Shown one piece after another: positions 5,572-50,453 of a stretch of DNA of 55,579 bases. This DNA is from Chloroflexota bacterium (GTDB lineage Bacteria; Chloroflexota; Limnocylindria; Limnocylindrales; CSP1-4), in the NCBI GenBank assembly GCA_005889475.1, contig VBGT01000029.1, positions 4,711 to 60,289 on the forward strand, given 5' to 3'. The translations under genes were made by a program, and so were the position numbers. The notes beneath the pieces are model-generated. The model ran no database searches, was not told the origin of the DNA, and was given only the letters and a program-made list of their open reading frames with translations. Numbering within the stretch: the first letter of the stretch is position 1; each line of letters starts with the position of its first letter.

Positions 5572-6546
5572 CTAGGCGCCGCCCTCGGCCGCCGGCTCGA
5601 CCGGGGCGTCGCCGCCCGGACCAGCTCGGCGAAGGCGCCGTGCGACGAGAAGCAGGGTGCCTCCGACGATCGTCGTGGCCAGGAGGATCGGCAGCCAAAC
5701 GATCCCGAACCAGATCCCGGCCGTGGCCACGTCCTGGAGCACATTCACCAGGCTGGCCGACGCGCGTTCCGCCTCGGCGCCGGGGTCGAACCGGGCCTGC
5801 TGCTCGGCGAGCACAGGTTCCGGCTTCATCGAGAACGTCACCGCCAGCGTCGACAACGCCGCCTGCTCTTCGAGGTGCGTTTTCTGCGCGGTCAGCTCCT
5901 CGATCTGGCCGCGGACATTGGTCAGCTCCCCCTGGACGGACAGCACGTCCTTGATCGTGCCGGCGCGATCCATGATCGCCTGGAGCGCTCGTTCCGTCGC
6001 CCCCAGGTTGCGGATGCGCGCACCGAGGTCGACAACCTGACCGGTCACGTCCTGGGTCTCGGAGTGTTCGGCCAGGACCCGGACGGCGAGGCCGCGCAGC
6101 CGGACGAACGCCTCTTCCCACTTCGGGGCCGGGACGCGGAACGTGATCGTCGCCGCGAGGCGGTCCCCGTCGCCGGTACGGTCCGAGCCGCTGGCGTAGC
6201 CACCGAGCGAGGAGACCAGGTTGGTCGCGTCGGCGAGGGCGGGATCGATGGCCGACACCTGCAGCGTCAGCGAGCCGGTCTTGATGATGAGGAGGTCCGA
6301 TCGGTCGACCGAGTAGAGCGGAACGTCGGGCGCCTCGGCGACCGGATCCTCGGGAACCTGGCCGGCCCCGGGCTCCTGCGGAGGCACCTCGTACCCCCCG
6401 TCGGGCGGGCCCACAGCGGCGCCGACGGTCGACAGGATCGGGGCGACCCTGGTGCCAAGGGTCGCGAAAGCGAGCCCGCCCAGCAGCACCAGCGCGACGA
6501 CCACGCCGATCGCGCGCCAGTTGGGACCTTCGTCGTCGAGCGTCAT
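5572..6546 (-). CDS. DUF4349-like membrane protein (paralog 1)
   Basis: N-terminal TM, LIIKTGSLTLQV, a coiled-coil segment (VVDLGARIRNLGATERALQAIMDRAGTIKDVLSVQGELTNVRGQIEEL) and a C-terminal TM (GIWFGIVWLPILL). It matches the architecture I associate with DUF4349. The start is either the MTLDDEG ATG at 6546 (GAGG upstream) or 6612. Confidence 0.65.
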   Translation of the reverse strand: MTLDDEGPNWRAIGVVVALVLLGGLAFATLGTRVAPILSTVGAAVGPPDGGYEVPPQEPGAGQVPEDPVAEAPDVPLYSVDRSDLLIIKTGSLTLQVSAIDPALADATNLVSSLGGYASGSDRTGDGDRLAATITFRVPAPKWEEAFVRLRGLAVRVLAEHSETQDVTGQVVDLGARIRNLGATERALQAIMDRAGTIKDVLSVQGELTNVRGQIEELTAQKTHLEEQAALSTLAVTFSMKPEPVLAEQQARFDPGAEAERASASLVNVLQDVATAGIWFGIVWLPILLATTIVGGTLLLVARRLRRAGPGGDAPVEPAAEGGA

Positions 6547-6695
6547 CGTGGCCAACCTCGAGGTGGAAGTCTCGGCAAGAAAACCATCCACCCCGAACCG
6601 GGCACGCGCCATCGGCGACGTCCCGCAGCGAGGGCTGCGGGGAATCCCGCAAGAATCGCGCCCGATCGCTGTTCAGCGATCGGGCGCGTGAGTTC

Positions 6696-7640
6696 TCAGG
6701 CCGCGCTCCCGGCCTCCGGGGCCACGGGCGGCGTGTCGTCGCCCGGACCAGCGCGGCGGAAACGGCGCGAGACCACGAGCACGACGCCGGCAACGATCCC
6801 GAAGAAGAGGAGGATGGGCAGCCAGACGATCCCGAACCAGATGCCGGCCGTGGCCACACCCTGGAGGACGCTGACCAGGCTCGCGGACGCCTGCTCCGCC
6901 TCGGCGGCCGGGTCGAATCCCTGCTGCTCGGTGCGGACCGGGTTCGGCTTCAGGGAGAACGTCACCGTGAGGGTGGACATCGCGGCCTGTTCCACGAGGT
7001 GGCCCTTCTCCGCAGTCATCTCCTCGATCTGGCCCCGAACCTTGGTCAGCTCGGCCTGCACGGACAGCACGTCCTTGATCTCCGTCGCGCGATCCATGAT
7101 CGCCTGGAGGGCGCGCTCGGTCGCCTCGAGGTTCTTGATCCGAGCGCCGAGGTCGACGACCTGGCCCGTCACGTCCTCGGTGGACGATCGTTCGGTGAGC
7201 ACCTTGTCGGCGAGGCCGCGCAGGGCGGCGAGCGCCTCGTCCCAGCGAGCCGCCGGGATGCGGAAGGTGATGCTCGCCGAGGCGTTCTCGCCGTCCCCGG
7301 ACCGATCCGAGCCGCTGACGTAGCCGCCAAGCCCGTCGACCTTCTGGGTCGCCGCCGTCACGGCTGCATCGAGGCCGGTGACCTGCAGCGAGAGCGCGCC
7401 GGTTTTGATGATCAGCGGGTCCGCCGGCGCGGCGGGGGGCTGGTTGCCCGAGCCGTTCTGGTCGCCTTCGACGGGCCCTCGAGCGGCGTCCCCCGTGGCC
7501 ACTCCAGGTGCGGCGGTCGCCCCTGGCGCACCAACCCCCTGGAGTGCGGCTCCGGAGCAACCGATCGCAAACAATCCGATCAGGAAGATCGCCACGACGG
7601 CCGGCCCTCGCACGCCGAGCCGTCGAACAGTGGACAGCAT
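6696..7640 (-). CDS. DUF4349-like lipoprotein (paralog 2)
   Basis: Lipobox LFAIGCSG, then the same domain order as 5572-6546, with near-identical blocks (VVDLGARIKNLEATERALQAIMDRATEIKDVLSVQAELTKVRGQIEEM; GIWFGIVWLPILL). Confidence 0.7.
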   Translation of the reverse strand: MLSTVRRLGVRGPAVVAIFLIGLFAIGCSGAALQGVGAPGATAAPGVATGDAARGPVEGDQNGSGNQPPAAPADPLIIKTGALSLQVTGLDAAVTAATQKVDGLGGYVSGSDRSGDGENASASITFRIPAARWDEALAALRGLADKVLTERSSTEDVTGQVVDLGARIKNLEATERALQAIMDRATEIKDVLSVQAELTKVRGQIEEMTAEKGHLVEQAAMSTLTVTFSLKPNPVRTEQQGFDPAAEAEQASASLVSVLQGVATAGIWFGIVWLPILLFFGIVAGVVLVVSRRFRRAGPGDDTPPVAPEAGSAA

Positions 7641-7739
7641 CGCGGTGCTCCTCTCTCAGTCGGGCGCGAAGGCGCACCGACGGCGCCCCGACGGCGGCAC
7701 GATAGCAATGGTTCCCAAGCGCTCTGGGCGGAGCCCACG

Positions 7740-8912
7740 TCAGGGCCGGTATTCGACACCCTTCGACGACGGCGGGCCGGCACGCTTCGGGAGGGCGGTG
7801 CCGATCAACGGCGCATGGCGATCGAGCCCTCGGCGCCGGCATTCGGCAGCGAGTTCTTCGACGAGGCGAGCCGGCAGGGTCGGGTCGGCGAAGATGGCCG
7901 TCCCGACCTGGACCGCCACGGCACCGACGGCGAGGTAGTCGAGCACGTCGGCGAGCTCCGTCACGCCCCCGATCGCGATGACCGGGATGTCGACGACCTG
8001 GCTGACCTCGTACACGATCCGCAGCGCGACGGGCTTGATCGCCGGGCCGGACAGGCCGCCGTAGATGTTGCCGAGCAGGGGCCGTTCGCGCCCCGTCGCG
8101 ACCGCGATTCCGGACAGCGTGTTGATGGCGGTGAGGGCGTCCGCGCCCGCGTCCGCGATGGCTCGCGCGATCGGGCGCACGTCAGCGACGTTCGGCGAGA
8201 GCTTGACCAGGAGCGGCAGCTCGGTGGCCCGGCGGACGGCCGCGGTGACGGCGCCCGCGGCCTCGGCATCGATTGCGAACTGGATGCCGCCCTTGCCGAC
8301 GTTCGGGCAGCTGATGTTGAGCTCGATACCCGCGACGCCGGGCACGCCGTCGAGGCGGCGAGCGACCTCGGTGAAGTCGGCGATCGACTCGCCGGCGACG
8401 TTCACGATCACCGGCACGCGCCAGCGCGACCACGTCGAGGCGTACTTGTCGATGACCGCGTCGACGCCCGGGTTCTGGAGCCCGATCGAGTTGAGCATCC
8501 CGCCCGGCGTCTCGGTGACGCGCGGCGTCGGGTTGCCGACGCGCGGCCGGAGCGTCGTGCCCTTGCAGCAGATGGCGCCGAGCCGCTGCACATCGACCAC
8601 GTCGCCGTATTCGACGCCGTAGCCGAACGTGCCCGAGGCGACGAGGATTGGGTTTGCCAGCACCAGGCCACGCCCGAGGTCGACCGACAGGTCGACCGCC
8701 TGATCCGTGGCCGGCCGGTTGCCGTCGCGCCCGGCGGTCGGTGGCGACACCTGCCGCTGCGTGGCTCCATTTCCGCCCTGCGTCGGTGCGACCGGCGCGG
8801 GCGGCAGGACCCGGCGCGTCGCCGGCAGGATCGCGGACTTGATGCGCCGCACCGTCGGGCGGCGCTTCGCGGGCGCGGCTCGCGAGGTCACGACTCGGCG
8901 CCTTGCCTTCAC
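7740..8912 (-). CDS. pyrD: Dihydroorotate dehydrogenase, class 1B catalytic subunit, with an apparent basic N-terminal extension
   Basis: LANPILVASGTFGYG, GMLNSIGLQNPG, IELNISCPNV, LVKLSPNV, GGLSGPAIKP, VIAIGGV. The proposed GTG at 8912 forms a GTGA overlap with the pyrK stop. The true start could lie further downstream. Confidence 0.85.
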   Translation of the reverse strand: MKARRRVVTSRAAPAKRRPTVRRIKSAILPATRRVLPPAPVAPTQGGNGATQRQVSPPTAGRDGNRPATDQAVDLSVDLGRGLVLANPILVASGTFGYGVEYGDVVDVQRLGAICCKGTTLRPRVGNPTPRVTETPGGMLNSIGLQNPGVDAVIDKYASTWSRWRVPVIVNVAGESIADFTEVARRLDGVPGVAGIELNISCPNVGKGGIQFAIDAEAAGAVTAAVRRATELPLLVKLSPNVADVRPIARAIADAGADALTAINTLSGIAVATGRERPLLGNIYGGLSGPAIKPVALRIVYEVSQVVDIPVIAIGGVTELADVLDYLAVGAVAVQVGTAIFADPTLPARLVEELAAECRRRGLDRHAPLIGTALPKRAGPPSSKGVEYRP

Positions 8913-9850
8913 CAGCCGCCCTCCCAGGCGATCTCGTCGGAGGCGAACACCGGGCCCTCGCGGCAGACACGCTGCGGCGTGCCGGCGGTCGACATCACGA
9001 CGCAGCCGAGGCACGCGCCCACGGCGCAGCCCATGTTCTGCTCCATCGATACCTGGAGGAAGGCCCGTCGGCGCGCCTGCGCCGAGCCGGCGGGGATCGG
9101 ACGCCCCCCGCCGCGCTTCCGACCCAGCGACGCCACGCCGAGCCGGCGCCGGCGAGAGGCCGCGAGGCCGGCCAGCGCTCGCAGCATCGGCAGCGGCCCG
9201 CAGGCGAAGGCCTGGTCGGCCCAGGCCTCGTAGTCCGCGACGAGATCCGTGACGAAGCCGCGGTGACCCACGGAGCCATCGTCGGTCGCGACGACGTACT
9301 CGACCTCGTCGGGGAGCAGCGACGAGGGATAAACATCTCTCGCTCCCGCACCGCCGAAGAGCAGCGTCACCTGCCGGCCGTCTCGGATCGCCTCGTCGGC
9401 GAGCGCACGGACGCCGGCCATGCCCAGCCCGCCCGCGATCAGCAGGATGTGCCGCGTCCGCGGGTCCACCTCGAACGGCCGGCCGAGCGGGCCGAGCATG
9501 TCGACCCGATCGCCGGGCCGGAGCCGCGTGAACCACTCGGTCCCGCGGCCCACTGTCCGGAAGTGGATCGTGAGCGTGCCCGCGACCGGGTCGATCGTGT
9601 TGAACGAGAACGGGCGGCGCAGGACGAGCCCCGAGTAGTCACCCGTTCGGACGTGGACGAACTGGCCCGCTCGGGCGCCCGCCACCAGCCCCGGTGCGCG
9701 GTAGGCCTGGAGCCATTGGCCGGGCAGGATCTCGCGACTGTCGAGGAGCTCCGCGCCGGCGAGGCGGATGGACGCCGGCTCGCGGGCCAGCCTCGACGCC
9801 GGCGCGCGTGCGGTCGGTTGGCTCGGGTCTCGCGCGCGGGTCGTCGTCAC
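8909..9850 (-). CDS. pyrK: Dihydroorotate dehydrogenase electron-transfer subunit (FAD / 2Fe-2S)
   Basis: RRPFSF (FAD-binding RxxS type), LLIAGGLGMAG, C-terminal Cys cluster MGCAVGACLGC...VCREGPVF. The GTG at 9850 overlaps the stop of the upstream gene (GTGA). Confidence 0.8.
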   Translation of the reverse strand: MTTTRARDPSQPTARAPASRLAREPASIRLAGAELLDSREILPGQWLQAYRAPGLVAGARAGQFVHVRTGDYSGLVLRRPFSFNTIDPVAGTLTIHFRTVGRGTEWFTRLRPGDRVDMLGPLGRPFEVDPRTRHILLIAGGLGMAGVRALADEAIRDGRQVTLLFGGAGARDVYPSSLLPDEVEYVVATDDGSVGHRGFVTDLVADYEAWADQAFACGPLPMLRALAGLAASRRRRLGVASLGRKRGGGRPIPAGSAQARRRAFLQVSMEQNMGCAVGACLGCVVMSTAGTPQRVCREGPVFASDEIAWEGGW

Positions 9851-44702: not shown

Positions 44703-44778
44703 GCGGGAGTAACTCAGCTGGCAGAGTGTCTGCTTCCCAAGCAGAATGTCGCGGGTTCGAATCCCGTCTCCCGCTCCA
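44703..44778 (+). tRNA. tRNA-Gly (anticodon CCC), CCA encoded
   Basis: Folded by hand. Acceptor GCGGGAG/CTCCCGC; D stem ACTC/GAGT; anticodon stem TCTGC/GCAGA with loop TT-CCC-AA; variable loop ATGTC; T arm GCGGG-TTCGAAT-CCCGT; discriminator T; then CCA. Confidence 0.9.
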
Positions 44779-45140
44779 ATTCCACGCAATTGATCGTGGC
44801 CACAGCGTCTGCTTCGGCAAGTTAGTTGCTGTGAGGCCCCGCATGGTCGTCTCCACAGCAAGTGCTTCACATGCCAGGGCAGGTCGCCGCGTTCGTCTCA
44901 GTGTCTGCCTCTTGCGTGTCGCCCGTTCGCACCGGGCCGTGATCGAAAGAATCAGGTCAAGGGGGACGAGCCTGAAGGCCCGGGTGGTTCGCAAGTCGCA
45001 AGCCGCGCGCGAGACTAGAGCACCGCTCCGCCTCGCAGAGACGCCAGCGCCTCGTCTTGCACCCTGCGCCTGGAGCGGGAGATAAGGGTTATCGCTCGCG
45101 CCTATGATCAGCGCCCCAGGAGTCCGCCAGGAGAGAGACC

Positions 45141-45512
45141 ATGTTGGACGACGACACGCTCAAGGACATGTACTCGAGACGCGGTGTCCCAACCGACTGG
45201 CAGGAGCTGACGCCGGACACCATGGCGCCCGCCTTCAAACTCTGGTACCGCGCGCTTCCCAGTCCGAAATCGGACTTCGTCGACGGATCTGAGTACGCCG
45301 AGTGGCTGATCCACGACCCGGTCGCCGCTCTTCGAGATTCTGGAATCATCTCCAGCGCGGAAGAGGATGCGGAGGAACCGCATATCTCGACGATGGTCGT
45401 CAACCACGAGAAGACGCTGAATCGACTCATCATGTTTGCGATGGTCGTGGTCTCGACGAATCCGAAGACCGTCGGGATCACGATCGTCAAGGAAGGGGCC
45501 CCCGAAGATTGA
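45141..45512 (+). CDS. Hypothetical acidic protein (islet orphan)
   Basis: 123 aa. GGAGAGAG Shine-Dalgarno 4 nt upstream of the ATG. A/T-ending codons are more frequent than in the flanking genes. I recognise no family. Confidence 0.5.
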   Translation: MLDDDTLKDMYSRRGVPTDWQELTPDTMAPAFKLWYRALPSPKSDFVDGSEYAEWLIHDPVAALRDSGIISSAEEDAEEPHISTMVVNHEKTLNRLIMFAMVVVSTNPKTVGITIVKEGAPED

Positions 45513-45593
45513 CGGTGCGGCCGTCGCCGATCCGCGAATCGGTCAGGACTGCTGCCTGCTGACCTGATTCCTGACCTCACGACCGCTCAGGCC

Positions 45594-48500
45594 ATGATCT
45601 GCCCCAGCTGCGGCTCCGAGAACCCATCGGACTTCCGATTCTGCCCGTCATGCGGGCTTGCCCTGGCTCCATCGGCGACCAACCGCCCCGAAGCGCCGCT
45701 CGAGGCCCAATCGTCCGCACTCTCGTCTGAGCCGGTCGGCGCCATCGCAGAACGCGCCCGGCCGCTTGCCGAGCGGCGGCTCGTATCGGTCCTCTTCCTC
45801 GACCTCGAAGGCTTCACCACCCTCTCCGAATCGCTCGACCCGGAGGACGTCCGCGAGATCCAGTCCCGCTATTTCGAGTCTGCGCGAGCGACCGTTGCGC
45901 ACTACGGCGGTTCGCTCGAGAAGTTCATCGGCGACGCCGTCATGGCGGTCTGGGGAACCCCGATCGCCCACGAGGACGATGGCGAGCGCGCGGTGCGTAC
46001 CGCACTCGAGGTCGTATCGGATGTCGAGACCATGTTTACCTCGCCCAGCAGCGGTCACCTCATGGCCCGCGGCGCCGTCACCACCGGAGAGGCCGCCGTC
46101 ACGCTCGACGCGGAGGGCCAGGGCATGGTGACGGGCGACCTCGTGAACACCGCCTCGCGGCTGCAGGGTGAGGCGACACCAGGCACGGTGCTGGTCGACG
46201 ATGCCACTCGTCGCGTGGTGGGGGAGGAGGTCGTTTTCGAGCCCGCCGGGGAGCTGATCCTGAAGGGCAAAGCCGCCCCCGTCTCCTCGTGGCGCGCGGT
46301 CGCCTTGGCTCCGCACGTAAGCAGCGAGTCGCGAACTGGCCATCGCGGACCGTTCGTGGGGCGCGATGCGGAGCTGCGCGCACTGAAGGAGCTGGGGGAA
46401 TCGGTCGCCAGCGAGCGCCGGATGAAGGTGGTCTCGCTGATCGGCATCGCCGGAATTGGCAAGAGCCGGCTCGCATGGGAGCTCGAGCATGCCCCGAGCG
46501 AACAGACGCCGCGAGCGGCGTGGTACGCAGGGCGCGCGCCCGGGTACGGCGAGGGAATCGCGTTCGCGCCCTTGGCCGAGATGGTGCGTCGCAGCGCTGG
46601 GATCGCGGAGGGCGATCCGGCCGAGGTCCAGCGTCGCGCTCTTGCCGAGACGCTTGGTCGCCTCATTCCCGATGATGCCGAGCGCGAGTGGATGCAGCCC
46701 CGCCTGCTTGCGCTTTTTCAGCCGGGAGGGGCCGTCGAGAGTCAGCGCGAGGAGCTTTTTGCCGCCTGGCGGCGGTTCTTCGAGGCCGATGCAGAGGCGG
46801 CCCCGATCAGCCTCGTCTTTGAGGACCTCCAATGGGCTGACCCGGGCCTCCTCGACTTCATCGACTACCTCGCTGATTGGTCCCGTCATCATCCGATCCT
46901 GGTCATGACTCTCGGCCGGCCGGAGCTGCTTGATGCGCGCCCGACCTGGGGCGCGCGCCTGCCGCATTTCACGGCCATGCATCTCGATCGGCTTGGGGAC
47001 GATGCGATCGACGCGCTGCTCGCAAGCCTGGCTCCCGGGCTCACCCCGAAGATCGCCATCCTAATTCGACAGCGAGCCGACGGCGTTCCGCTCTACGCGG
47101 TCGAGATGGCACGCATGCTCACCGAGCGGGGCAGTGGCTCGGTCGTAGGCGACTCTGCGACGAAAGCCCCCGGCACAGCCGCGGGGAGAGCCATCGAGAT
47201 TCCGGAATCGCTGCACGCCCTCCTGGCCGCACGGATCGACGCCCTCCCCGCCCCGGAACGGTCCCTGCTGTTCACGGCCGCCGTCCTCGGCCGCCGATTC
47301 CGACCTGATGCGCTCGCGGCGCTCGCTGGATTGGATCGGGTGACCCTCAGCTCGGCCATACGGGCGCTCGTGCGTCGCGAATTCCTGGCGGTCGACGACG
47401 AACCGCGCTCCCCTGGGCGAGGACAGCTGAGCTTCGTCCAGGAGCTGGTCCGCGAGGTCGCCTATCACACCCTCTCGCGACGAGAGCGGCGCACGCTCCA
47501 CCTGGCGGTGATCGAGTACCTCGAGTCGATTGGTGAGACGGACCTCGTTGAGCCGATTGCCGAGCACTTGCTCGCGGCGCATGCCGCTGCCGGCCCCGAT
47601 CAGGGGCAGGACCAGGCGATCGCCGATCGCGCGCGCGACGCGCTTCGTCAGGCCGCGACACGGGCGCAGGCGCTGCATGCCCCGCAACGTGCCCTCGCGC
47701 ACCTCGAGCAGGCCCTGGGCCTCACCCAGGATCCTCCGGAGCGGGCAATTTTGGCCGAGGCAGCCGGCCTCGCGGCGCGCGCCGCAGCGCGATTTCCGAC
47801 CGCCGAGCGGTACCTCCGAATGGCGACCGAGCTGCGAGAGGCCCAGGGCGATGCCACCGCGGCGGGGGCCCGAAATCGAGCGCAGTTGGCGAGCGTCCTG
47901 CTGCAGGCGCAGCGCAGCACGACGGCGCTAGCCGAGCTGGAGTCAGCGTGGAACGCGGCCGCAGCCGGCTCCGATCGGAACGCCATAGCGCTGGAACTGC
48001 CGGCTGAGCTCGCCAGGGCTCACCTGCTTCGGGGCGATACAGAGCGCGCGATCGAATGGGCGGAGCGGGCAATCGCTGCCGCGGGCTCGGATGCCGCCGA
48101 TGGGCCGGGCGCCGCGCAGGCGGTGGCGATCGACGCGCGGGTCACCCTGGGAACGGCGCACGCAAGTCAAGGCGATCTCGAGGAAGGTCTCGCGCAGCTG
48201 CGCCAGGCGATAAGCGATGCCGAGTCCGGCGGCCACGGCTCGGTCGAGCTCCGTGCCCTCAACAACCTGGCATGGACCATGGTCAGCGACGATCCGCGCG
48301 CCACAAGCGAAACGGCGCGGCGCGGGCTCGAGCTGGCAGAGCGCCTAGGAATTCGCGAGATGGCACTCCAGCTGCTCGACATTGCCACCATCGTGGCGAT
48401 TGACACCGGGGATTGGGACTGGGCTGTATTGGCCCTCGAGGAGGGATCTGAAGGCGAGCTGCCGACCACCCACCGCCTGGACTTCGCAGCGACGCGCACG

Positions 48501-49070
48501 ATCCTGAACGCGTTGCGCGGCGTCCCTGATCCGACAGGTCCCATCGACAGCCAGGGTGCGCTCGAGCCCGACCTGGATCCGGAGGCACTCGGCTGGGTCG
48601 ATTATGCGCGCGCGCTGGTGGCGATGGTTGCCGGCGACCTGCCTCGCGCTCTCGAATTGGCCCGCGTCGCGGCTGGCAAGACGCGGGGGTTCGAGCGATC
48701 GGCAGTCCTCGCCGTGGCGGGACGCGTCGCGGCATGGAGCGGCAGGGTCGACGCCGCGTCGGAGGTACTCGCCGAGCTTGAGGCAGAGCAGACCTGGGGC
48801 CGCGCCGCGGAGGCCTCGCGTCACACGCTCCGTGCCGCCGTCGCAGCTGCCAAGACGTTGGGCAAAGGCCCGGGCCTCAAGGACGCCGACCGCGAATGGA
48901 CCGATGCGCTCACTGGCTGGCTCCAGCTCGACCTTCCACTGCGCCTGGGTCTGTGCCACCTAGATCGCTGGGTGCTCGCCGGCAGCGAGCAGGACCACGC
49001 GGCCGCCGTCGAGATCTTCGAGAGGCTGGGGGCCACGCCCCTGACGACGCTCGACCCCAGACCGCGCTAA
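45594..49070 (+). CDS. Zinc-ribbon / class III adenylate-guanylate cyclase / AAA (STAND-type) ATPase / TPR-like repeat protein
   Basis: 1158 aa. N-terminal CPSCGSENPSDFRFCPSCG. The cyclase domain has SVLFLDLEGFT, GGSLEKFIGDAVMAVWG and TGDLVNTASRLQ. FVGRDAELRAL is followed by Walker A IGIAGIGKSRL and Walker B LVFEDLQWAD. The C-terminal ~550 aa are Ala/Leu-rich helical repeats. No terminal HTH is seen. Confidence 0.85.
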   Translation: MICPSCGSENPSDFRFCPSCGLALAPSATNRPEAPLEAQSSALSSEPVGAIAERARPLAERRLVSVLFLDLEGFTTLSESLDPEDVREIQSRYFESARATVAHYGGSLEKFIGDAVMAVWGTPIAHEDDGERAVRTALEVVSDVETMFTSPSSGHLMARGAVTTGEAAVTLDAEGQGMVTGDLVNTASRLQGEATPGTVLVDDATRRVVGEEVVFEPAGELILKGKAAPVSSWRAVALAPHVSSESRTGHRGPFVGRDAELRALKELGESVASERRMKVVSLIGIAGIGKSRLAWELEHAPSEQTPRAAWYAGRAPGYGEGIAFAPLAEMVRRSAGIAEGDPAEVQRRALAETLGRLIPDDAEREWMQPRLLALFQPGGAVESQREELFAAWRRFFEADAEAAPISLVFEDLQWADPGLLDFIDYLADWSRHHPILVMTLGRPELLDARPTWGARLPHFTAMHLDRLGDDAIDALLASLAPGLTPKIAILIRQRADGVPLYAVEMARMLTERGSGSVVGDSATKAPGTAAGRAIEIPESLHALLAARIDALPAPERSLLFTAAVLGRRFRPDALAALAGLDRVTLSSAIRALVRREFLAVDDEPRSPGRGQLSFVQELVREVAYHTLSRRERRTLHLAVIEYLESIGETDLVEPIAEHLLAAHAAAGPDQGQDQAIADRARDALRQAATRAQALHAPQRALAHLEQALGLTQDPPERAILAEAAGLAARAAARFPTAERYLRMATELREAQGDATAAGARNRAQLASVLLQAQRSTTALAELESAWNAAAAGSDRNAIALELPAELARAHLLRGDTERAIEWAERAIAAAGSDAADGPGAAQAVAIDARVTLGTAHASQGDLEEGLAQLRQAISDAESGGHGSVELRALNNLAWTMVSDDPRATSETARRGLELAERLGIREMALQLLDIATIVAIDTGDWDWAVLALEEGSEGELPTTHRLDFAATRTILNALRGVPDPTGPIDSQGALEPDLDPEALGWVDYARALVAMVAGDLPRALELARVAAGKTRGFERSAVLAVAGRVAAWSGRVDAASEVLAELEAEQTWGRAAEASRHTLRAAVAAAKTLGKGPGLKDADREWTDALTGWLQLDLPLRLGLCHLDRWVLAGSEQDHAAAVEIFERLGATPLTTLDPRPR

Positions 49071-49127
49071 GGGCCCCGGTCGCCCGCAGCCCTGAGGGCC
49101 CGCCTGGAGCTTCGCGAGCGTTGTAGG

Positions 49128-49610
49128 TCACTTAAAATCACGACCGAAGTCGTTCGTGACGATGGGGGACTGGTAGTCGATGTTGACGTGCGAGACCCCG
49201 ATCGCCCGGACAGTGCCGTCACCTAACTCGAAGACGACGACCCTGTAGCCAAGCCCCCCGGCGCTCACCACGCTGGACGCGATGCTGTGAAGCGTTGCTC
49301 GCACGACCGGCGCATGCGACGGATCACGGCGGTCGAAGCCGTCACGGGCCGCGCTGAGCCAAACTGCGAAGCTCGCGTCGCAGTCCCACGGCCGCCCGAC
49401 CGCGTAGGCGTCAGGATCGGAAGTGAGTATCGGGCCGGGCGGGCAGGTTTCGAGTTCGCCCACCTTCCAGCCGTCATAGATCGCCGGTCCAAAGAGGTTC
49501 GCCGGGAATCCGAGGCGCACGGCGGCGAACGCCACGAAGACGAGGATCGCGACGATGAGCGCGGACTTGAGCGGGCTCGGACCGCGCTCAAGGCGCCGAT
49601 ATCTCGTCAT
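49128..49610 (-). CDS. Membrane-anchored hypothetical protein (islet orphan)
   Basis: 160 aa. N-terminal anchor ALIVAILVFVAFAAV, then a soluble domain with two Cys residues (ETCPPGP...WDCDAS). Confidence 0.5.
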   Translation of the reverse strand: MTRYRRLERGPSPLKSALIVAILVFVAFAAVRLGFPANLFGPAIYDGWKVGELETCPPGPILTSDPDAYAVGRPWDCDASFAVWLSAARDGFDRRDPSHAPVVRATLHSIASSVVSAGGLGYRVVVFELGDGTVRAIGVSHVNIDYQSPIVTNDFGRDFK

Positions 49611-49831
49611 CGCGTAGGGGTCATGCTGGTCGCCACCGCCCCGGGGTTCAGTGTGCGGAGGGTATCGGTGAATCGTGGATCGGCAATCCGTGATTTCGCC
49701 TAATGCTGGAAGCGCGCACTCGGCAGCGCCTCGCTTGCGACGCGCGAAGCAGCGGAGCGAAAGGAGCTATCGACCCGCCGGATTCTCGGTGCTAGCGTCC
49801 ATTAGCAGGTTGCTACTGGGGGGTCGCTGCC

Positions 49832-50287
49832 GTGCGTCGGGTCATCACCACTCTTGCGCTGGCGCTGTCTCTGCTCGGATGCGGCTCGTCAGCGCCATCG
49901 GGCTCCGCAGCGCCATCAGTCTCCGCAGCGCCAGCGGGCGAACCGATTGAGTTGCGTACGGGTGTCGATCCGGATTTAGGTCCGGAGCGATCCGATGGCC
50001 TAAACGCGTGCCGCACGTTCTGGAACGTGGGTCTGCTCATTGTCGATGCGGACTTCGGGACAGCCGCTGAGGGCAACTACGGCATCAAGCCGCTGATCTG
50101 GCCCCTCGGCTATACAGCTCGTCGACTGGCCGGGGGCGAGGTCGTGGTGCTGAACCGGACCGGCGATGTCGTGGCGACCACGGGGCACAAATACCAGTTT
50201 TGGACGGTCGCTTGGGGCGGTGGCGGTCCGGCCCACACCGGCTTCTGCGTGAACGAGTGGAGCCCCGACGCCACACCCGCTCTCTAG
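49832..50287 (+). CDS. Hypothetical lipoprotein (islet orphan)
   Basis: 151 aa. GTG start, lipobox LSLLGCGSS. An 18-nt tandem duplication (49903-49938) encodes SAAPSVSAAPAG. Confidence 0.55.
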   Translation: MRRVITTLALALSLLGCGSSAPSGSAAPSVSAAPAGEPIELRTGVDPDLGPERSDGLNACRTFWNVGLLIVDADFGTAAEGNYGIKPLIWPLGYTARRLAGGEVVVLNRTGDVVATTGHKYQFWTVAWGGGGPAHTGFCVNEWSPDATPAL

Positions 50288-50408: not shown

Positions 50409-50453
50409 GCTTCCCGCGCAGAATGTCGCGGGTGCGAATCCCGTCTCCCGCTC
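50409..50453 (+). repeat. Direct repeat of the 3' half of tRNA-Gly(CCC) (att-like relic, not a tRNA)
   Basis: gcttcccGCgcagaatgtcgcgggtGcgaatcccgtctcccgctc matches 44732-44776 at 42 of 45 positions in the same orientation. The upstream sequence has no acceptor or D-arm counterpart. Confidence 0.8.

Follow-up and report, generated by a model that had tools for sequence, protein, structure and literature searches.

The question raised by the locus described here is whether a large protein that joins a nucleotide cyclase to an NTPase and a long helical-repeat region serves in ordinary signalling or in defence, and whether it acts by itself. The protein is encoded in a 55,579-nucleotide (nt) stretch of contig VBGT01000029.1 (assembly GCA_005889475.1, positions 4,711 to 60,289 of the forward strand), termed the window. 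An initial annotation, made by reading the sequence, described it as a stand-alone sensor of the STAND kind (ATPases of signal transduction that have numerous domains) and placed it in an actinobacterial setting. The host is a member of the Chloroflexota (Limnocylindria) instead, and the protein does not stand alone: a strictly linked upstream gene of 123 amino acids (aa) had been missed. We consider it probable, on balance, that the locus encodes a ligand-gated STAND-type class III nucleotide cyclase of soil Chloroflexota (Limnocylindria), carried in a two-gene module with a small dedicated partner.

Domain structure of the cyclase-STAND protein

The longest open reading frame of the region and its domains are the following.

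45594..49070, plus strand: zinc ribbon / class III cyclase / STAND NTPase / tetratricopeptide repeat (TPR)-like protein, ATG start, 1158 aa
45600..45653, plus strand: zinc ribbon, residues 3–20 (C3, C6, C17, C20), from Pfam Zn_Ribbon_1
45768..46307, plus strand: class III cyclase domain, residues 59–238, from Pfam, PDB alignments, residue invariance and fold
46350..47393, plus strand: STAND NTPase module (nucleotide-binding, helical and winged-helix parts), residues ~253–600, from AAA_16, invariant motifs and fold
47418..49046, plus strand: TPR-like helical-repeat sensor without a helix-turn-helix (HTH), residues 609–1151, from secondary structure in the AlphaFold2 (AF2) model and weak Pfam TPR matches

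Pfam, AF2 and Foldseek agree on the order zinc ribbon, cyclase, STAND module and TPR, and with it on the initially proposed STAND layout in three parts, in which a class III cyclase is the output. The double Cys-pair zinc ribbon at the N-terminus is matched by Zn_Ribbon_1 at residues 3–21 (E-value = 9.5e-7), and the CPxC...CxSCG pattern is kept in those relatives whose N-terminus is present. The Guanylate_cyc family (PF00211) matches residues 63–227 with an E-value of 1.1e-14 and a score of 54.9 bits, where the cut-off is 21.9. In a structural comparison (Foldseek, PDB) this domain fits CyaB, CyaC, Cya2 and Rv1900c with TM scores of 0.8–0.9. AAA_16 matches residues 253–437 (E-value = 2.1e-18). 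The P-loop with its Walker A and B motifs is followed by helical and winged-helix modules and then a repeat sensor, which is the arrangement of STAND NTPases. A sequence comparison of the NTPase module alone with the PDB gave no match to any chain, and Pfam TPR matches, at residues 805–915, are weak.

The AF2 model of the 1158 aa protein was built on 23 homologues and has a mean pLDDT (AF2 confidence score) of 80.6. The ribbon is followed by a disordered linker (26–60), the cyclase (59–238) and the NTPase module (to ~600), and residues 609–1151 form unbroken helical hairpins, mostly at pLDDT >90. When the full model is compared with the PDB by Foldseek, the top match is the STAND-TPR protein PH0952 (6mfv; E-value = 1.5e-11, 763 columns); Avs3 (8dgc) is lower in the list with an E-value of 5.9e-9. 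As had been noted at the outset, the LuxR HTH of related mycobacterial proteins is lacking. A check for a hidden C-terminal DNA-binding domain found none: Pfam shows no HTH at E-values up to 1, and in the AF2 model the helical repeats continue to the end, with no separate terminal DNA-binding domain. The protein therefore has the domain order given above and a STAND-TPR fold, and it lacks a DNA-binding output.

Catalytic residues and substrate pocket

Residue conservation was judged on an alignment of 23 family members of 49–93% identity. In 23 of 23 sequences D70 (FLDLEGFT), K110 and D114 (EKFIGDAVMAVWG) and N185 and R189 (VNTASR) are invariant, as are the Walker A segment G284–S291 (GIAGIGKS) and the Walker B residue D411 (FEDL). 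The two metal-binding Asp and the transition-state Asn/Arg that characterize class III cyclases are thus present as D70, D114, N185 and R189.

The specificity positions were set by an ungapped HMMER alignment to the rhodopsin-cyclase domain of Catenaria (5oyh, 6sir). Between the wild type, with Glu/Cys (6sir), and the engineered variant, with Lys/Asp (5oyh), exactly these two positions change. The second one aligns with Met178, seven residues before Asn185; this position is Met in 21 of the 23 sequences and Ile in the other 2. The catalytic hexad is D70-K110-D114-M178-N185-R189. The initial reading of an intact catalytic set thus holds for the metal Asp, Lys110, the Asn/Arg and the P-loop, but the Asp of TGDLVN (D182), which had been taken as one half of a Lys/Asp adenylate cyclase pair, is not a specificity residue. 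The pair is Lys/Met and differs from both the canonical Lys/Asp and the class IIIb Lys/Thr of adenylate cyclases. Spacing in the hexad (D70–D114, 44; K110–D114, 4; D114–N185, 71; M178–N185, 7; N185–R189, 4) equals what we take to be the spacing in Spirulina CyaC (D1017, K1057, D1061, T1139, N1146, R1150).

Since D70, K110, D114, N185, R189 and the Walker A and B motifs are invariant and M178 is kept in at least 90% of the sequences, both enzymatic modules are under purifying selection. With its hexad D-K-D-M-N-R intact in the alignment, the enzyme looks active. In structural work on Pycsar systems, pocket residues at and around the specificity positions vary among uridylate and cytidylate cyclases (PMC11224242), and for this reason the Lys alone leaves the product unfixed. 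The Lys/Met pair therefore does not allow the product to be assigned from sequence as cAMP with certainty; cAMP would be the default expectation, and the pocket permits other products.

A small gene strictly linked to the cyclase-STAND gene

45141..45512, plus strand: small partner gene, 123 aa, acidic, alpha/beta, from conservation, AF2 and linkage
45085..49072, plus strand: conserved two-gene module, from blastn of the window against the loci of relatives

The small gene lies directly upstream of the cyclase-STAND gene on the same strand and had no annotation. Blastn homology of the window to the locus of the closest relative (L003; loci of relatives carry L numbers) is confined to 45085–49072, that is, both genes plus 56 nt upstream, with 93.6% nt identity and unrelated flanks. 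After removal of duplicate contigs, a homologue of the small gene adjoins a cyclase-STAND orthologue in all 21 assessable loci. The linkage is seen from both sides. Starting from the cyclase, the small gene is found immediately upstream in all fetched contexts (L001, L003, L006, L007 and L008) while the other neighbours differ; the identity is 83% for L001, 93% for L003, 68% for both L006 and L007, and 66% for L008, where the stop of the small gene overlaps the cyclase start. Starting from the small gene, a full-length cyclase-STAND orthologue lies 33–154 nt downstream in 13 of 14 loci from species-representative genomes, and the 14th locus ends at a contig edge.

More distant relatives show the same association. 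In L023 and L024 (about 50% identity) the upstream genes, of 144 and 146 aa, are homologous to the small gene by hhalign (probability 95–97%; E-values = 2e-8 and 1.5e-10). Downstream of a highly divergent member of the small family, in L027, there is a cyclase domain with 54% identity to the window protein. Another, in L025, is arranged tail-to-tail (convergently) with a 1119 aa cyclase-STAND protein of 44% identity, and so the adjacency survives a change of gene orientation. In most loci the two genes are co-directional with a gap of 28–177 nt, and no terminator was found between the small gene and the cyclase gene. No RNA sequencing run was found to contain the sequence.

None of Pfam, NCBIfam, PHROGs and PADLOC contains a match to the 123 aa sequence. 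The small family is conserved from end to end, and its motifs VVNHE-TL-R and S-NP--G-T--KE do not vary. Searching 1.84 billion cluster representatives with a profile yielded just 30 clusters, all of them short, and among these 1.84e9 representatives no fusion of the small domain to another protein was found. AF2 predicts a compact alpha/beta fold (pLDDT 75, predicted TM score 0.70), for which Foldseek returned nothing significant from the PDB or the viral library BFVD. Most simply, the small protein would be a stoichiometric binding partner of the STAND protein. It could be an anti-activator or a co-sensor, and it might be a new kind of nucleotide receptor. Protein inhibitors of MalT are a precedent for an anti-activator role.

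Family size and relation to known systems

The initial annotation implied that the protein is rare. There are at least 8000 homologues among the matches listed, all significant, and in many of them a zinc ribbon, single or double, likewise precedes the cyclase and AAA_16 domains. Such homologues are already named, e.g. "class 3 adenylate cyclase/TPR", "AAA family ATPase" or "adenylate/guanylate cyclase domain-containing protein". The best matches are full length and come from soil metagenomes and from metagenome-assembled genomes labelled Chloroflexota or Candidatus Limnocylindria. When contigs of four soil metagenomes are placed on the window, summed depth rises from ~5–18 to 1000–2800 over 45776–46022, the segment encoding EKFIGDAVMAVWG; the nucleotide sequence of this motif is common to the cyclase genes of a very large number of soil organisms. 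Over the same segment, dozens of loose contig ends read ...AHEDD....

Paralogues are also found in tandem. In L018:9837-12332, L019:6825-8984 and L022:9876-12017 a second cyclase-STAND gene lies directly downstream; these are 44–47% identical to the window protein and have no small partner gene of their own. The orthologue in L021:6409-9838 aligns as two pieces (6409–7299 and 7313–9838), which may reflect a frameshift or a local rearrangement. A PHROG family of no assigned function, phrog_25255 (profile length 1125), matches residues 46–718 with an E-value of 2.3e-51, and phage or prophage records have thus contributed proteins that share the cyclase-STAND core.

The architecture is of a known kind. 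Rv0386, Rv1358 and Rv2488c of Mycobacterium tuberculosis likewise consist of an N-terminal class III cyclase, an AAA_16/MalT-type NTPase and TPR. Rv0386 is an active adenylyl cyclase with a non-canonical substrate pair, and a Gln/Asn pair has been reported for the mycobacterial cyclase-ATPase group (PMC3466318; bioRxiv 10.1101/2024.03.06.583649). In contrast to that group, the window protein lacks the LuxR HTH, has an N-terminal zinc ribbon, carries Lys/Met in place of Gln/Asn, occurs in Chloroflexota and has a strictly linked small gene. The lack of a C-terminal LuxR-type HTH also separates it from MalT/LAL regulators. The best structural match of its NTPase and sensor is PH0952 of Pyrococcus horikoshii (6mfv), a MalT-like, autoinhibited STAND protein with a TPR sensor, but the sequence identity is 14% and the output domain differs. 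The present clade is thus the HTH-less, zinc-ribbon version of the known kind, marked by the missing HTH, the ribbon, the Lys/Met pocket and the obligate small partner; the one new point is the partner gene.

The islet and its genomic context

44703..44778, plus strand: tRNA-Gly(CCC), left islet boundary, from ARAGORN
44732..44776, plus strand: left copy of a 45-nt direct repeat (3′ part of tRNA-Gly), from a repeat search
50409..50453, plus strand: right copy of the 45-nt direct repeat, an att-like tRNA fragment, from a repeat search and the sequence itself
49128..50287, both strands: two divergent open reading frames, 160 aa (minus) and 151 aa (plus), from the list of open reading frames

The right copy of the repeat is 42/45 identical to the left copy, lies 5.7 kb downstream and is not called as a tRNA by ARAGORN. 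It closes a 5.7-kb islet that contains the two-gene module and the two divergent open reading frames, with no integrase among its genes. These two frames are outside the conserved module, are not homologous to the flanks of relatives, and have no match in Pfam, PHROGs or PADLOC. An 18-nt tandem duplication is present at 49883–49918 within the 151 aa frame (49832–50287). The G+C content is 0.65–0.69 at 43–47 kb and 0.70–0.72 upstream, and both flanks of the islet are sugar-catabolism operons. The 45-nt tRNA-Gly repeat and the unrelated flanks in relatives speak for a horizontally acquired islet, as was first suggested, and the islet reading is supported at this locus.

All four soil metagenome populations carry the islet, and their contigs cross the right repeat. 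An empty site was sought in three ways: the four soil runs show no contig joint that skips the islet, an exact 41-nt right-flank pattern has 0 matches in the metagenome contigs, and a look-up of the flanking TIM-barrel protein returned no record.

In 5 of ~19 loci a tRNA gene precedes the small gene by at most 1.3 kb, far above the ~1% expected by chance.

44703..44778 of the window; L001:8980-9056; L007:7399-7474; L011:4707-4782; L024:5227-5312: tRNAs near the small gene

Across these loci the tRNAs are Gly-CCC, Arg-TCG, Gly-TCC, Lys-TTT or Ser-TGA, and 2 of the 5 have an orientation that does not fit the module as their cargo. No tRNA-fragment repeats surround the module in L024 or L011, and therefore the att-like repeat is specific to the window locus. 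The module clearly changes neighbours between genomes. In L001 and L003, the two nearest relatives, it is preceded by a DUF6855 gene and followed on the opposite strand by genes for HD/HD_assoc_2 (dGTPase-like), CAP-domain and WYL-WCX proteins (L001:13476-16643, L003:5188-8288), none of which is present in the window.

Signalling or defence

A role in phage sensing of the Avs type had been suggested at first. PADLOC returned only PycC cyclase models for the 1158 aa protein (residues 57–190, E-value = 1.6e-11) and no Avs or other STAND defence model. Among the small partner, the islet open reading frames and the recurrent neighbours of the closest relatives, the only defence match is a generic WYL regulator in one context. 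Over ~20 contexts the neighbours are metabolic or housekeeping genes and not defence genes; elsewhere they include hydrogenase, MerB, ABC transporters, tRNA synthetases and tryptophan biosynthesis. The initial annotation had proposed a survey of orthologue neighbourhoods for defence islands, tRNAs and partners. Defence islands do not recur in it. Nearby tRNAs do in part of the loci, and the small partner does in all assessable ones.

One context points to signalling. In L007 the surroundings of the orthologue include Crp-type regulator, cNMP-binding (cyclic nucleoside monophosphate-binding), GAF and GGDEF genes and another cyclase; of these, the Crp-type, cNMP-binding, GAF and cyclase genes form a cluster that precedes it (L007:687-6910). 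That other cyclase is a 670 aa cyclase/NB-ARC-like/HTH_77 protein, in which the specificity and transition-state positions look substituted (VDTQGD, VHRAAR).

In the 23-sequence alignment the mean identity to the window protein falls from 0.71 (cyclase) through 0.64 (NTPase) to 0.44–0.55 (sensor), and the sensor region is 35–55% identical in relatives that are 49–93% identical overall. By this alignment the gradient is gentle, and the sensor is conserved and does not display the hypervariability expected of an arms-race sensor. The very large family, the class 3 adenylate cyclase/TPR annotation, the tandem paralogues, the L007 context and the conserved sensor were counted for signalling, and ordinary second-messenger signalling rather than immunity is most likely.

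Proposed mechanism

Class III cyclases have their active sites across a dimer interface and need dimerization, and STAND proteins oligomerize upon ligand binding to the sensor and ADP-to-ATP exchange. Activation by induced proximity would be the most economical model. At rest, the TPR-like sensor and the ADP-bound NTPase module would keep the protein monomeric. The sensor would recognize a signal, possibly through or against the small partner, and recognition would lead to nucleotide exchange and oligomerization. The N-terminal cyclase domains could then pair in the head-to-tail dimers needed for catalysis. A 3′,5′-cyclic nucleotide would be made, by default cAMP, with the product left open by the Lys/Met pocket, and receptors encoded elsewhere in the genome would read the signal.

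Several points weigh against this view of the locus. A tblastn search of the 55-kb window gave neither a homologue of Crp-type or cNMP-binding proteins nor a second cyclase, in agreement with the initial statement that no cNMP-binding effector is encoded nearby, and the window thus encodes no receptor for the signal. The module is on a tRNA-bounded islet and moves between contexts; such a mobile, tRNA-bounded context is also typical of defence genes. The Met at the second specificity position makes cAMP an assumption. It is the linkage of the genes that suggests binding of the small protein to the large one, and it is the sequence and the predicted fold that suggest activity in the present clade.

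Alternative explanations

An anti-phage sensor of the Avs or Pycsar kind would see a phage protein, or a partner modified by phage (a guardee), and its cyclic nucleotide would activate a distant killing effector. The effector-NTPase-sensor layout and the general fold are shared with Avs proteins such as Avs3, as the Foldseek match indicates, and the tRNA-bounded islet with its variable context, the similarity to PycC and the PHROG match would all suit such a sensor. The Lys/Met pocket could allow a non-canonical product, as pockets vary among Pycsar cyclases (PMC11224242). But the protein matches no Avs or other STAND defence model, no defence island surrounds it, and its output is of a non-lethal type. 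The likeness to PycC is at the domain level only, i.e. the class III fold and the metal and transition-state residues. The neighbours over the ~20 contexts, the conserved sensor, the tandem paralogues and the number of homologues fit signalling better, and a 2026 survey of STANDs associated with defence has no mention of cyclase effectors in its main text. PycC proteins are small or tandem-domain cyclases encoded beside a PycTM or PycTIR effector. Neither the adjacent genes nor tblastn with cNMP-binding probes in the window gave a PycTM/PycTIR-like effector, and the one conserved neighbour has no cNMP-binding, TIR or transmembrane domain. An anti-phage role is accordingly judged unlikely. A slightly less probable explanation is that the cyclic nucleotide has its receptor or effector in the small partner, a new cNMP-binding protein in a self-contained signal-response pair. 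It would account for strict linkage without a known cNMP receptor nearby, and for a highly conserved, predicted folded protein with invariant polar motifs. However, the small protein has no likeness to CNB, GAF or any other known nucleotide-binding fold, its 123 aa show no enzymatic or membrane features and no obvious output, and translational coupling suits a stoichiometric complex at least equally well.

It is very improbable that the small gene is a precursor of the nitrile hydratase leader peptide (NHLP) type and the large protein a relative of the kinase/cyclase of thiazole/oxazole-modified microcins (TOMM), acting in the maturation or regulation of a peptide natural product. The cyclase-AAA_16 core (residues 87–693) does align with TIGR03903 (TOMM_kin_cyc; E-value = 3.4e-57), but the 194.1 bits are far under the cut-off of 705.75, and the match, which begins only at position 312 of the profile, leaves out the kinase part. 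Two partner homologues weakly match NF038399 (NHLP clan) and Pfam Frankia_peptide through a LIHDPVAALRE-G stretch; with E-values of 0.03–0.17 these matches are not significant, and the window's own protein has none. The partner is conserved end to end with no hypervariable core, its compact alpha/beta model shows no nitrile hydratase match, there are no TOMM biosynthetic genes near the module, and no cyclodehydratase or other maturation gene is near any locus. Identity of the small protein as an NHLP-type precursor of a ribosomally synthesized and post-translationally modified peptide was rejected, with sub-threshold matches in two relatives and no support from a PDB profile search or Foldseek. 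A further, bolder reading, to which we give about as little credence as to the partner as receptor, is that the 123 aa protein has a new fold and acts as trigger, anti-activator or guardee, that the Lys/Met pocket makes a product other than cAMP, and that the two genes form a self-contained, mobile alarm module for defence or stress.

Significance

To our knowledge, few multidomain signalling proteins of soil bacteria are as numerous as those of the cyclase-STAND-TPR kind, and we know of none outside mycobacteria that has been studied. Within its very large family the 1158 aa protein itself is rather ordinary, and it is the partner gene that deserves attention. If the protein is an ordinary cAMP generator, the value of the finding is limited to the annotation of Limnocylindria genomes and to one small protein family. 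If the alarm module is real, the locus would represent a class of STAND system that is new and has a second messenger as its output. The conserved Lys/Met pocket poses the simple question of which nucleotide is made, and a partner that is always encoded beside one clade gives a handle on what such a sensor binds.

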